Made by a program: the position numbers and the translations under genes. A model generated the notes under the pieces. The model saw nothing but the letters and a program-made list of their open reading frames with translations, was not told the DNA's origin and made no database searches. A stretch of 64,000 bases of DNA, from the IMG/VR virus record IMGVR_UViG_2724679236_000008. One strand, written 5' to 3'. Of this stretch, positions 5,546 to 7,914 are shown piece by piece. Every line of letters starts with the position of its first letter. The stretch's first letter is position 1. Source of the stretch: a virus. Taxonomy: Duplodnaviria; Heunggongvirae; Uroviricota; Caudoviricetes.

Positions 5546-6520
5546 TTATCTGCTACCGCGCGACGGTTTCTGCGTGATAAACGTATCAAGCATCTTTTCC
5601 GCAATTGCCGACCAAGTGTGACACTGGACCTTTTCAGCATTTTTCACGCGATCAACGCGAGCAATAACCTCATCCCAATCAATCCGCGACTTGATAACCA
5701 TATGGTTCACCAAAGCCAGGCGATCCGGCGGAAGACAATCGGGCGGCGTTAATATCAACGCCCCACACATTGCCGCCTCAAGAACAGTTAATCCAAGACT
5801 TTCGGGATGCGTAACGATAAAAACGTCACTCTTACGCAATTCAGCTGCAAATTCGGTTGCTGGCACCGGCGTCCGTCTGTATGGGGTTACCGAAATATTC
5901 CCCGGATCAATGGTAACCAATCCGTCATCAGTCAACGTTCTGGCCTCATACGGAACGGTCAGGCGCTGAAGGTTCATAAGGATACTTAAGGTGTGATCAA
6001 ACCCACTAACATCAAATGCAGCGTGGTCTACAAAGATACGTAGAACATCGTCTGTTTTGGTTTCCAGATGGAACAGCTCCTGATTCGCTGCCCATCCAAC
6101 ATGTTTGTTAAAGCGATTATGACGCTCTAATCGGCCGGGATTATCCAGGTACCGCCAGGTATCATCGCGGACAGTAAAAGTAATATCGACTGGTGCCGAA
6201 TCCAGCATAGAACCGTCATATACCTGGGCCACCCATCCAGTGAATCGGCGACACAGTTGCACGCCTATTTCCCTGGGCACCGTAGTAAAATACCGCAATC
6301 CTGGCGCTAAAATGGCTTTCGCAGAACACGAGGTCGCAGCTGTCAACACAGCCTCAACATAATCCTCCGGGCTTTCGACGCTGGGGGAATATGGACGATG
6401 GTATTGCAATGTTACCCCAGCCTCAGTAAAGGCGCAGGCCAGGTTATAAGCCCACATTTCCGTATATGTTTTCACATCACTGATGGCTTCAAATTTTCGC
6501 CCAATGATCAGGATGTTCAT
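5546..6520 (-). CDS. GT-B-type glycosyltransferase-like protein coupled to the helicase gene (324 aa from ATG 6520; alternative ATG at 6544)
   Basis: ESLGLTVLEAAMCGALILTP resembles the group-1 glycosyltransferase E-x7-E motif; SD GAGGAAAAG before ATG 6520; alternative ATG 6544 overlaps ban stop (TAATG). Confidence 0.5.
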   Translation of the reverse strand: MNILIIGRKFEAISDVKTYTEMWAYNLACAFTEAGVTLQYHRPYSPSVESPEDYVEAVLTAATSCSAKAILAPGLRYFTTVPREIGVQLCRRFTGWVAQVYDGSMLDSAPVDITFTVRDDTWRYLDNPGRLERHNRFNKHVGWAANQELFHLETKTDDVLRIFVDHAAFDVSGFDHTLSILMNLQRLTVPYEARTLTDDGLVTIDPGNISVTPYRRTPVPATEFAAELRKSDVFIVTHPESLGLTVLEAAMCGALILTPPDCLPPDRLALVNHMVIKSRIDWDEVIARVDRVKNAEKVQCHTWSAIAEKMLDTFITQKPSRGSR

Positions 6521-6543
6521 CGGCTTTTCCTCATTCCATTGCA

Positions 6544-7914
6544 TTAATAATCCTCTTGCCAGTCAGCACCAGCATAGTTATCAAATCGTGAATACTGGCC
6601 GTTAAAAGCCAATCTCACCGTGCCAATCGGGCCATTTCGTTGCTTACCAATAATCACCTCGGCAATGCCCTTCATTTCGCTATCCGGGTGATAAACCTCG
6701 TCGCGATACAGAAACATGATCAGGTCTGCGTCCTGTTCAATTGCTCCAGATTCACGCAAATCTGAATTTACCGGTCGTTTGTCCGCACGCTGTTCAAGCG
6801 AGCGATTAAGTTGTGACAATGCCACCACCGGTACTTGTAATTCCTTCGCCAACGCCTTAAGTGAGCGAGAAATCTCGGCAATTTCCAGTGTTCGGTTATC
6901 TTGCAGCTCGGGGACGCGCATAAGTTGCAGGTAGTCGATCATGATCATGCTCAATCCGCCATTTTCTTTATAAACACGACGAGCACGGGAACGAAGCTCT
7001 GTAGGTGTCAGGGCGCTTGAGTCATCAATAAAAATATTCTGCTTGTCCAACAGAATCCCCATTGCGCCAGAAACCCGCGCCCAATCCTCGTCGTTAAGTT
7101 GCCCCGTTCTAATACGAGTCTGATCAACACGTGCAAGAGAGGCCAGTGAGCGCATCATCAGCTGGTGGCTTGGCATCTCAAGGCTAAAAACCAATACAGG
7201 CTTATCGCTACGGACTGCGGCATTTTCGACAAGATTCATCGCAAACGTGGTCTTTCCCATAGATGGGCGGGCGGCGACAATAATGAGATCGGATGGCTGA
7301 AGCCCTGCCGTCTTCTTATTGAGATCGGTAAATCCGGTATCAAGCCCCGTTACACCATCATGCGGTCGCTGAAACAACTCTTCTATGCGAGATACCGTTG
7401 CATCGAGAATGCTGGCGATATCTTTTGGACCACTACCGCTCTTTTGTCGTTTTTCAGCTATTTCAAAAACGCGGCGCTCGGCCATATCCAGCAATTCATT
7501 GCTGCTCCGGCCATCCTGCGCATATCCAGCTTCGGCTATTTCATTTGCGACGGAAATCATTTCACGAACAACCGCGCGTTCACGAACGATATCCGCATAA
7601 GCACAAATATTTGCCGCGCTGGGCGTGTTCTTTGACATCTCCGCAAGGTACGCAAAACCACCGGCGCGTTCTAATTTACCGTTCTGTTCAAGTGCTTCAG
7701 CAAGTGTTATCAAATCAATCGGTTTGCCATGACTTAATAACCTCTCCATCTCACTGAAAATCTCACGATGAGCACTGGTATAAAAATCATCAGCAACTAT
7801 ACGATCTGCAACTTCATCCCAGCGGCAGTTATCAAGCATTAAGCCACCAAGTACAGCTTGTTCTGCACTAAGGGAATTTGGCATGGATTCAAGAGGGGAT
7901 GCAGACATTAGCAC
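6544..7914 (-). CDS. ban: DnaB-family replicative DNA helicase (P1 Ban-like, 456 aa)
   Basis: Walker A ARPSMGKTTFAMNL, DnaB-type N-terminal domain (EQAVLGGLMLD), full-length match to DnaB architecture. Confidence 0.9.
   Translation of the reverse strand: MLMSASPLESMPNSLSAEQAVLGGLMLDNCRWDEVADRIVADDFYTSAHREIFSEMERLLSHGKPIDLITLAEALEQNGKLERAGGFAYLAEMSKNTPSAANICAYADIVRERAVVREMISVANEIAEAGYAQDGRSSNELLDMAERRVFEIAEKRQKSGSGPKDIASILDATVSRIEELFQRPHDGVTGLDTGFTDLNKKTAGLQPSDLIIVAARPSMGKTTFAMNLVENAAVRSDKPVLVFSLEMPSHQLMMRSLASLARVDQTRIRTGQLNDEDWARVSGAMGILLDKQNIFIDDSSALTPTELRSRARRVYKENGGLSMIMIDYLQLMRVPELQDNRTLEIAEISRSLKALAKELQVPVVALSQLNRSLEQRADKRPVNSDLRESGAIEQDADLIMFLYRDEVYHPDSEMKGIAEVIIGKQRNGPIGTVRLAFNGQYSRFDNYAGADWQEDY

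Follow-up and report, generated by a model that had tools for sequence, protein, structure and literature searches.

The gene that follows the replicative helicase gene ban in the P1-like phage-plasmid analysed here, dbn, encodes a GT-B protein that resembles GT4 enzymes and has kept its EX7E motif intact; the evolutionary partners of this protein are PmgO, PmgP and PmgQ rather than the helicase. We consider it probable that ban and dbn form the tail of a C1-repressed operon and that Dbn is an accessory glycosyltransferase working with PmgO, PmgP and PmgQ, and not with the helicase beside which it is encoded.

The ban-dbn locus and its operon

The window, by which we mean the whole 64-kb stretch of DNA that was analysed, belongs to a P1-like phage-plasmid with 96% identity to P1, P7 and RCS47. 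Its ban-dbn region is collinear with that of P1 (nucleotide identity 96%), and dbn lies, as in P1, directly downstream of ban, convergent with baseplate gene 5 and inside the operon controlled by Oban and C1. The features discussed below are the following.

5499..5525, minus strand: hairpin terminator after dbn, common to dbn and the convergent baseplate gene 5
5546..6520, minus strand: dbn, GT4-like GT-B glycosyltransferase of 324 aa counted from ATG2 (identity to P1, PHROG, fold)
5777..5803, minus strand: EX7E motif ESLGLTVLE, with E248 and E256 in the 332-aa numbering (translation)
6528..6532, minus strand: Shine-Dalgarno sequence GAGGA of ATG2, 7-nt spacer (sequence)
6542..6546, minus strand: TAATG, the ban stop overlapping the first in-frame dbn ATG, ATG1 (sequence)
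6544..7908, minus strand: ban, DnaB-type replicative helicase of 454 aa (ATG at 7908, Pfam, collinearity with P1)
10248..10275, no strand assigned: Oban (Op72ab), bivalent C1 repressor operator, with promoter Pban (operator search)

The first-pass annotation of this DNA had described a glycosyltransferase-like gene translationally coupled to a DnaB-type helicase gene, and the identity of the helicase is confirmed by Pfam, according to which Ban carries both the DnaB N-terminal domain (PF00772, E 3.3e-35) and the RecA-type C-terminal domain (DnaB_C, PF03796, E 5.8e-108) with full profile coverage. The dN/dS of ban against P1 is 0.02. Its outer boundary needs a small correction: the position first given, 7914, does correspond to the GTG of the mechanical open reading frame, but the start annotated in P1 is the ATG at 7908, from which the protein begins MSASPLES and which has the better ribosome-binding site.

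The operator stretch, with one perfect and one 2-mismatch match to ATTGCTCTAATAAATTT, is identical to the Pban region of P1 annotated in AF234172, and Oban and Pban are the start of the operon, repressed by C1, whose tail is ban-dbn. Its end is marked by the terminator, a hairpin with a 12-bp stem (-23.8 kcal/mol for a 71-nt stretch, z = -3.2) in which CUU after the stem and a 3' arm ending in UUUU provide the U-rich stretch; baseplate gene 5 ends at 5499 on the ORF map. Operators and terminator are both conserved. The search for internal promoters of dbn returned one weak match, 9/12 to the consensus (7154-7181), where shuffled sequence gives 6.3, and so offers no evidence for expression of dbn in the lysogen.

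The junction and the start codon of dbn

On the minus strand the junction reads CAA GAG GAT TAT TAATG CAA TGG AAT GAG GAA AAG CCG ATG AAC ATC. The ban stop TAA (6546-6544) overlaps ATG1 (6544-6542), which opens an ORF of 332 aa (5546..6544) and is the annotated start in P1, and 24 nt downstream ATG2 (6520-6518) opens the 324-aa protein. The overlap and the second ATG with its Shine-Dalgarno site had been pointed out before, and the sequence agrees with both; what had escaped mention is that ATG1 has a GAGGA of its own (6551-6555, 6-nt spacer) within the last ban codons. As GAGGA stands before both ATGs, Shine-Dalgarno sites alone cannot choose the start, and independent initiation at each of them is possible. 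Overlaps of stop and start codons are frequent in phage operons and unremarkable by themselves; judged from its sequence, the junction would allow translational coupling of ban and dbn.

Comparison with relatives is more informative. TAATG is present in 72 of the 81 P1-like loci and TGATG in 2, while the remaining 7 (L085-L091) have instead an inserted ORF of 101 aa which ends exactly on ATG2. Among the dbn homologs of alignment A1, 13 of 17 begin at the equivalent of M9. These homolog starts, together with the ORF fusions at ATG2, indicate that the conserved protein has 324 aa; a start at ATG1 would extend it by 8 codons that encode a disordered tail, residues 1-9 being coil and residues 1-5 having pLDDT <50 in the AlphaFold2 (AF2) model.

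Fold and conserved motifs of Dbn

Dbn is the ortholog of the gene product encoded downstream of ban in P1, with which it shares 318 of 331 residues (96%, 13 substitutions), and it matches phrog_2518 over residues 1-331 (E 8.3e-237). Beyond these relatives, searches of Pfam, NCBIfam and PDB sequences returned only sub-threshold or motif-level matches. The Pfam family Glycos_transf_1 (PF00534) scored 23.8 bits, under the cutoff of 26.4 (E 3.7e-5), and the match covers only profile positions 83-169, in the C-terminal half; 18 of 49 family members match PF00534 at E <= 0.01 (best E 1.6e-5), and NCBIfam had no meaningful match for Dbn. With sequence matches so weak, structure prediction was needed for the assignment. 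A match of the A1 profile to the KtrA/RCK Rossmann domain (E 1.5e-4), obtained through a duplicated 60-residue stretch, was read as generic Rossmann similarity and set aside.

The AF2 model (pLDDT 89.2, pTM 0.85) has two Rossmann-like halves of alternating strands and helices. Foldseek found 83 matches in the PDB at E <= 1e-3, and the best 50 of these are all of GT-B fold and nearly all glycosyltransferases, with probability 1.00 and GT4 enzymes on top, namely sucrose-phosphate synthase, GlgM, PimB', BshA and an LPS glycosyltransferase (E about 1e-8). The best viral structural match, in BFVD, was a Tupanvirus glycosyltransferase with a TM of 0.77-0.80. A GT fold is thus present in the model, and the GT-B-like character that had been proposed for the protein stands.

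The EX7E motif is the donor-binding and catalytic signature of GT4 enzymes. Both of its glutamates are invariant in alignment A1. The family alignment A2, of 49 sequences, shows no variation at the second glutamate and at least 90% conservation at the first. The Dbn motif ESLGLTVLE aligns to ESLGLMALE of AmGGT (PDB 8xsg), in which these glutamates are needed for activity, the E223A and E231A mutants being inactive, and in which Y201 and R203 contact uridine (PMC12159676). Dbn has a conserved pair Y222-x-R224 at a similar spacing before EX7E, and by analogy Y222 and R224 may be likened to the uridine-contacting residues of AmGGT. One apparent departure is found in the loop after strand 168-172, the first of the C-terminal domain, where the secondary structure of the model places an invariant D173-H174. 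GT4 enzymes usually carry there an Arg/Lys pair that binds the donor diphosphate. The conserved R224 and R237 might replace this pair; with Asp-His in place of Arg/Lys the donor could also be an unusual one.

Dbn is acidic (pI 5.7; 6.1 for the N-terminal domain) and has no hydrophobic segment, which speaks weakly against a membrane lipid, e.g. the LPS core, as its acceptor. Its sequence contains neither a signal peptide nor a transmembrane segment.

Genomic context of dbn homologs

The first-pass annotation took the pairing of a sugar transferase with a replicative helicase for unusual. As an observation it is not new, since the name dbn itself stands for "downstream of ban" and both the juxtaposition and the label "possible glycosyltransferase" are already in AF234172. 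Nor does the wider comparison favour its being functionally meaningful: a DnaB gene was found near a Dbn homolog in none of the 14 non-P1 loci (within 5-8 kb of flank where the contig allows), 7 P1-like variants carry an ORF between the two genes, and the neighbours that recur are other glycan enzymes. The pairing of dbn with a helicase gene is confined to the P1 lineage.

Outside this lineage Dbn homologs adjoin homologs of P1 PmgO, PmgP and PmgQ, which are MptE-like and glycosyltransferase-like proteins. PmgO and PmgP are MptE-like and resemble Kdo/nonulosonic-acid transferases, and PmgQ is a phrog_1962 glycosyltransferase. The order of the block is PmgO-PmgP-(x)-Dbn-PmgQ in phage EP_H11 and in locus L004, and PmgP-Dbn-PmgQ-PmgO in a metagenomic phage (L009). 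In the contigs L094-L099, which come from large phages and in three cases bear T4-type markers, Dbn-PmgQ stands beside an NDP-sugar enzyme and, where the flank is annotated, a methyltransferase and/or a pyruvyl transferase; in L094 the cluster is within ~8 kb of a terminase gene. Of the 22 GenBank phage records that encode a Dbn homolog, none lacks one of PmgQ. A cellular Dbn homolog belongs to a Wza capsule locus and has an MptE/WaaZ_KDO_III-like gene as its neighbour.

In P1 the corresponding genes form the pmgO-pmgP-ppp-pmgQ operon, which is separate from that of dbn and lies 6-8.5 kb from it, and the phosphatase gene ppp takes, between pmgP and pmgQ, the place of the Dbn homolog in EP_H11 and L009. 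The pmg genes belong to a "putative morphogenetic" block and adjoin pmgS, which is annotated as PmgS-like head morphogenesis. A tblastn search of the 64-kb window with the cassette partners returned nothing, because the positions of P1 pmgO-pmgQ lie just past its left edge; we infer the presence of PmgO, PmgP and PmgQ in this phage from its 96%-identical relatives. What links Dbn to these proteins is gene neighbourhood and co-occurrence.

Family spread and dispensability

The Dbn family is a small clade of its own, with 372 representatives among 1.84 billion at E <= 1e-3. A scan of GTDB genomes yielded nothing beyond a single P1-like contig of Escherichia and a fragment of 209 bp, and a second viral scan (alignment A6) again only P1-like loci. 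Each of dbn, pmgO, pmgP and pmgQ is non-essential in P1 by CRISPRi (PMC10695390), and we found no paper on the function of Dbn in the literature. PADLOC had no match for Dbn, the inserted 101-aa ORF, or the PmgP-like and PmgQ-like proteins; membership in a defence system was rejected on this result, a lone weak "GT4-conflict" Pfam match in 1 of 49 members being disregarded.

Possible functions of Dbn

From the occurrence of Dbn homologs in one block with PmgO, PmgP and PmgQ homologs it would be logical to suggest that Dbn most likely works with those enzymes. Ribosomes that end ban would restart at the ATG at 6544 or, more probably, at that at 6520 with its own Shine-Dalgarno site, and dbn would be made whenever the operon is derepressed, i.e. 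during lytic development. Dbn is probably an active enzyme. Its donor would be a nucleotide sugar of the host, probably UDP-linked, from which a hexose would pass to a glycan-type acceptor with retention, as is usual for GT4. The position of dbn beside the helicase gene would then be an accident of gene order in the P1 lineage and not a functional coupling, and Dbn would most likely act with PmgO, PmgP and PmgQ as a non-essential accessory glycosylation module. As the acceptor we would rank a host envelope glycan (e.g. LPS core) before a virion or host protein, this before a small molecule, and nucleic acid far behind. Going further, we tentatively suggest a conserved, undescribed phage module that has Dbn as its GT-B core, also comprises a PmgQ-type glycosyltransferase and the MptE-like PmgO and PmgP, recurs in several unrelated phage groups, is split in P1 between the ban and pmgO-pmgQ operons, and builds a short glycan, possibly with Kdo/nonulosonic acid, on the LPS core, on a virion protein or, with the lowest likelihood, on a nucleic acid such as DNA or the tRNAs of the operon itself.

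Several more specific proposals can be set against this evidence. It is possible, if somewhat doubtful, that Dbn, alone or with PmgO, PmgP and PmgQ, remodels a host envelope glycan, for which the LPS core is the obvious candidate, and so masks receptors on infected cells and debris or excludes superinfecting phage. The LPS core is the receptor of P1, which adsorbs to its terminal glucose; the LPS-core GT4 enzymes 5n80 and 5n7z are among the structural neighbours of Dbn, PmgO and PmgP are MptE-like, the cellular homolog sits in a capsule locus, and dispensability in the laboratory is what one would expect of an ecological accessory function. A gene in a C1-repressed lytic operon, with internal promoters predicted only weakly, would however not be expected to be expressed in the lysogen, and an acidic protein without an obvious membrane-binding surface fits such an acceptor less well. 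That the four proteins glycosylate virion proteins, as do some mycobacteriophage glycosyltransferases, we regard as rather unlikely. The partner genes do stand in the "putative morphogenetic" block beside pmgS, the L094 cluster is ~8 kb or less from a terminase gene, and Dbn is soluble, cytoplasmic and expressed in the lytic cycle (bioRxiv 10.64898/2025.12.28.696737); but the "pmg" names were guessed from gene position, none of the four genes is needed to form plaques, and we found no report of glycosylated P1 virion proteins.

Quite improbable, in turn, is that dbn is a decaying or catalytically dead remnant whose overlap with ban reflects compact phage packing. Non-essentiality, the Pfam score under threshold and the apparent lack of the GT4 Arg/Lys pair would agree with it, but the gene is under purifying selection (dN/dS 0.12-0.14), the 81 P1-like loci hold 53 distinct full-length alleles and not one premature stop (0/81), the 90%-identity cluster counts 2431 member sequences, and EX7E and other cleft residues are kept across ~370 cluster representatives. 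The least credible to us is a fuller form of the suggestion in the first-pass annotation that the protein might modify DNA or a host factor, namely that Dbn glycosylates phage DNA, like the T4 glucosyltransferases, or a replication factor, the coupling to the helicase timing the modification with replication. The T4 enzymes AGT and BGT do share the GT-B fold, and dbn shares a transcript, and possibly translational coupling, with ban. Against it stand the non-P1 loci without a DnaB gene and the ORF interposed in P1-like variants, the absence of AGT and BGT from the top 50 structural matches in PDB or BFVD, and recurrent neighbours of glycan type (pyruvyl transferase, methyltransferase, NDP-sugar enzyme, MptE-like transferases and other glycosyltransferases), which do not indicate DNA as a substrate. 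To our knowledge, P1 DNA carries no hydroxymethyl or sugar-modified bases. DNA modification coupled to replication is therefore unlikely.

The helicase-glycosyltransferase pairing as first stated matters little, being on record already in AF234172, and dbn is dispensable in the laboratory. With the fold confirmed and comparative evidence on the start codon, the annotation can be cleaned up to 324 aa, GT-B and GT4-like, and the shift of partners from the helicase to PmgO, PmgP and PmgQ gives a modest new lead, a dispersed glycosylation module. For P1 geneticists it provides a four-gene hypothesis on "putative morphogenetic" and unknown genes which have no assigned function. Similar glycosyltransferase cassettes are widespread in large environmental phages, and if the suggested module is real, P1 would be a tractable model for what such cassettes do.

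Comparison with known systems

The closest known counterpart is P1 Dbn (AAQ14048, "function unknown, possible glycosyltransferase"), the same gene as P7 Glt and the RCS47 "GT family 4 protein" (PHROG 2518). Position between ban and the convergent gene 5, TAATG junction and C1-controlled operon are all the same, and nothing of substance differs. The P1 annotation starts at ATG1 (332 aa), whereas the comparative evidence given here favours ATG2 (324 aa); P7 Glt is annotated shorter still than 324 aa.

Among the retaining GT-B enzymes of CAZy family GT4, Dbn can be likened to 6kih (sucrose-phosphate synthase), 6tvp (GlgM), 3oka (PimB'), 3mbo (BshA), 5n80 (LPS-biosynthesis glycosyltransferase) and 8xsg (AmGGT), with which it shares the two-Rossmann GT-B fold (Foldseek E 6e-9 to 1e-6, probability 1.0, TM 0.59-0.66), EX7E in the same place and the lack of a signal peptide and transmembrane segment. 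It differs from them in a sequence identity of 9-14%, a length ~30-80 residues shorter than most, a PF00534 score under the gathering cutoff, and, by position in the model, Asp-His for the usual Arg/Lys.

The T4 alpha- and beta-glucosyltransferases, AGT and BGT, are GT-B enzymes that glucosylate hydroxymethylcytosine in DNA. Dbn resembles them as a phage-encoded GT-B protein, but they did not appear in its sequence searches or among the 50 best structural matches in either the PDB or BFVD, and no conserved linkage of Dbn to DNA-metabolism genes was seen; we know of no hydroxymethyl bases made by P1.

A likeness in gene content is seen to the cassettes of several glycosyltransferases in Escherichia phages EP_H11 and IME392, metagenomic temperate phages and large phages with T4-type genes. 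They hold PmgO/PmgP (MptE-like), Dbn-like and PmgQ-like (phrog_1962) proteins, the Dbn family member being their central GT-B enzyme. P1 carries all four families; what sets P1-like phages apart is that their Dbn gene stands away from the cassette, behind ban.

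Identity and junction of the ban-dbn pair

The helicase and sugar transferase genes considered here are the ban and dbn genes of phage P1. Positions 5400-8100 match 18 GenBank records over their full length at 96.0-96.5% identity, every one a P1-like phage or phage-plasmid (P1, P7, RCS47, SJ46 and JL22 among them), and the comparison with the gene downstream of ban in P1, proposed in the first-pass annotation, identified the protein as the Dbn ortholog (318 of 331 residues identical). The pair and its glycosyltransferase label are already known: the P1 record AF234172 gives ban as 'replicative DNA helicase' and dbn, an abbreviation of 'downstream of ban' (PMC10695390), as 'function unknown, possible glycosyltransferase', the P7 counterpart is glt, 'putative glycosyltransferase', and the RefSeq label is 'glycosyltransferase family 4 protein'. 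P7 Glt (AF503408, L002:1647-2645) is annotated with 287 aa only, starting 134 nt past the ban stop, despite 96% identity of P7 DNA to the window across the junction; the short call probably stems from how the old record was annotated or from an error in its sequence.

Features of the ban-dbn region and of the C1 regulon (window positions)
5499-5525, hairpin of 12 bp between dbn and the convergent baseplate gene 5
5777-5803, minus strand, EX7E motif ESLGLTVLE, the GT4 signature, by translation
6520-6544, place equivalent to a 101-aa ORF inserted in some P1-like loci (e.g. L086:5699-6004), whose start overlaps the ban stop
8196-8271, tRNA-Ile2-like, anticodon CAT, collinear with P1
9233-9319, tRNA-Ser(tga), in segment 8980-9560
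10248-10275, Oban, bivalent C1 operator, one perfect and one 2-mismatch site, identical to the P1 operator stretch
659-675, 10248-10275, 13781-13797, 28937-28953, 30596-30612, 57908-57924 and 61758-61774, matches to the C1 operator consensus

The reading of the junction was borne out: the ban TAA (6546-6544, minus strand) overlaps an ATG at 6544-6542, and 24 nt further on a second ATG (6520-6518), preceded by GAGGA at 6532-6528 with a 7-nt spacer, opens a 324-aa product. The ban ORF also stands as read, except that it begins at ATG 7908, as in P1, and not at GTG 7914 of the mechanical ORF. Because the first ATG has a GAGGA of its own (6555-6551, minus strand), ribosome-binding sites cannot tell the two starts apart. 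The position of the second is the start of 13 of 17 homologs in an 18-sequence alignment, where MKILIIG forms the first beta-strand; in the AlphaFold2 model the longer, 332-aa form opens with nine residues of coil, the first five at pLDDT <50; and in seven of 81 P1-like loci drawn from IMG/VR and GTDB (L085-L091) the 101-aa ORF (phrog_12809) lies between ban and dbn, its TGA overlapping exactly the second ATG, with the 24-nt stretch carrying the first one absent. Together these favour the second ATG as the dbn start and the 324-aa protein as the conserved unit, while the first ATG may be used alongside it; the arrangement permits translational coupling. The inserted ORF of these seven contigs gave no Pfam or PADLOC match. 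In one of them (L086:4331-5702) ban is broken into ORFs of 150 and 326 aa upstream of an intact dbn, a frameshift that may come from faulty sequencing or may mean that ban is a pseudogene there.

Control and conservation

With Oban upstream and the 5499-5525 hairpin behind it, dbn closes the ban operon, which is under repressor control. The sole promoter-like match within ban, 7154-7181 (P2dbn as predicted in the P1 record), is weak and not above chance. The 17-nt C1 consensus has eight matches in the window at <=3 mismatches, 0.34 being expected by chance, and these mark out its C1 regulon. Only ~180 nt downstream of Pban/Oban, adjoining the annotated dicF-like region of P1, is a strong hairpin of terminator type followed by a run of T (GCCCATCTTCGGGTGGGCGTTTTTT; 10066-10088, minus strand), and ban-dbn transcription has to read through it. 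The middle of the operon leader, 8980-9560, is unlike P1, being an unrelated segment with tRNA-Ser(UGA) where P1 has tRNA-Asn, tRNA-Thr, plp and upl; its flanks (dicF-like region, tciA-C, tRNA-Ile2-like) are collinear with P1.

No premature stop in dbn was found in any of the 81 P1-like loci, which hold 53 distinct full-length alleles. A dN/dS of 0.12 (mean pairwise) or 0.14 (against P1), with 0.02 for ban against P1, indicates that dbn is conserved under purifying selection; the 90%-identity cluster of Dbn has 2431 member sequences. The gene is transcribed in P1vir infection (bioRxiv 10.64898/2025.12.28.696737) and, in a CRISPRi screen, proved unnecessary for growth in the lytic cycle (PMC10695390); pmgO, pmgP and pmgQ are likewise non-essential.

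Fold and motif

Taken alone, the sequence evidence for a glycosyltransferase is borderline. Pfam Glycos_transf_1 matched with its C-terminal half only (E 3.7e-5, 23.8 bits, under the 26.4-bit cutoff), NCBIfam and PDB sequence searches gave nothing significant, and a 49-sequence family profile found solely the GT4-type enzyme AmGGT (8xsg; E 2.9e-4, over the EX7E region). It is structure that settled the question. The AlphaFold2 model from the family alignment (pLDDT 89.2, pTM 0.85) had 83 PDB matches at E <= 1e-3 in Foldseek, of which the best 50 are all GT-B-fold enzymes, nearly all glycosyltransferases, topped by the GT4 members sucrose-phosphate synthase 6kih, GlgM 6tvp, PimB' 3oka, BshA 3mbo and the LPS glycosyltransferases 5n80 and 5n7z. 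BFVD matches are viral glycosyltransferases, the best a 315-aa Tupanvirus enzyme (TM 0.77-0.80). Dbn has the GT-B fold, resembles GT4 enzymes and carries EX7E; the initial observation was correct and its fold prediction right, for a finding that was known.

The close alignment shows no variation at either motif glutamate; in the wide one the second is invariant and the first at least 90% conserved. The motif aligns to that of AmGGT, an enzyme less active as the E223A or E231A mutant and with Tyr201 and Arg203 as its uridine contacts (PMC12159676). A conserved Y222-x-R224 stands at a similar distance ahead of the Dbn motif and may, by analogy, be the counterpart of that pair. Unlike GT4 enzymes, in which an Arg/Lys pair is usual after the first C-terminal-domain strand, the Dbn family has an invariant Asp-His there, as placed by the secondary structure of the model. 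With 372 representatives (50% identity) at E <= 1e-3 among 1.84 billion, the family is small and discrete.

Neighbours outside the P1 lineage

The helicase-sugar transferase pairing, which the first-pass annotation called unusual, is restricted to the P1 lineage: tblastn placed a Ban/DnaB homolog near none of 14 non-P1 loci with a Dbn homolog, within 5-8 kb of flank where the contig reaches, and a functional tie of Dbn to replication is unlikely. Directly downstream, mostly overlapping, is instead a phrog_1962 'glycosyltransferase' gene (L004, L009, Escherichia phage EP_H11, L094, L095/L097, L096, L098, L099), whose P1 counterpart in a search of GenBank phages is PmgQ (47.6% identical). Upstream are MptE-like proteins (phrog_2111, phrog_4603) in enterobacterial phages and a CTP_transf/mannose-6-P-isomerase-type enzyme in the large phage contigs L094-L099. 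These large contigs carry UvsX-like RecA (L094, L095), a DEAD-box helicase (L094, L096) and a terminase (L094); a methyltransferase is also found in L094-L096, contigs with annotated flanks, and polysaccharide pyruvyl transferase is present in L094 and L095/L097.

A cellular homolog, from Colwellia, is encoded immediately behind an MptE/WaaZ_KDO_III-like gene within a capsule locus of the Wza type. Its 233-aa call (P0022, L005:5384-6702, a metagenome contig) looks mis-called or frameshifted; tblastn aligns Dbn over L005:5713-6690, so that a full-length gene directly follows the MptE/WaaZ-like one. In 320-kb Stenotrophomonas phages (jumbo phage RAS14, L093:5617-7275) a Dbn-like C-terminal domain sits within a 552-aa protein, ~12 kb from a PmgQ-like gene.

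Order of dbn and pmg homologs
L004, PmgO-PmgP-(189-aa ORF)-Dbn-PmgQ
EP_H11, PmgO-PmgP-Dbn-PmgQ
L009 (metagenomic phage), PmgP-Dbn-PmgQ-PmgO
L003 (Citrobacter P1-like plasmid), PmgP-PmgQ-PmgR-PmgS, Dbn ~3 kb further
P1 NC_005856 79592-82150 (L178:1193-3751), pmgO, pmgP, ppp, pmgQ

All 22 GenBank phage records with a Dbn homolog, representing only a few independent lineages, fall within the 35 of 50,697 records with a PmgQ homolog. Mapped onto P1 coordinates, the O26 operator (659-675) falls at P1 78528-78544, so window position 1 corresponds to P1 ~79202, inside pmgM; pmgO-pmgQ would sit just beyond the left edge, which explains why tblastn found no PmgO/P/Q-type partner within the 64-kb window.

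Proposed role

We propose that Dbn actively transfers sugar from a nucleotide donor and is made in lytic development. Together with enzymes of the PmgO/P/Q type it would form an accessory module for glycosylation, and its acceptor would not be DNA but a glycan or a protein. Glucosylation of DNA, a form of the modification raised in the first-pass annotation, finds essentially no support. On the acceptor the indications are mixed: WaaZ-like partners and the capsule-locus homolog fit LPS or the host envelope, as does the LPS core that serves P1 as receptor, but dbn regulation is lytic only, and Dbn is acidic and non-amphipathic (pI 5.7), its maximum hydropathy of 1.55 falling in the buried motif helix. 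A virion protein is a reasonable alternative.

The products of P1 pmgO and pmgP are themselves weak MptE-like proteins, PmgO bearing the RefSeq label 'alpha-2,3-sialyltransferase'. A literature search found no report of the Dbn-PmgO/P/Q association, which we see as a modest by-product of this analysis. Where P1 has the phosphatase gene ppp between pmgP and pmgQ, EP_H11 and L009 have the Dbn homolog.
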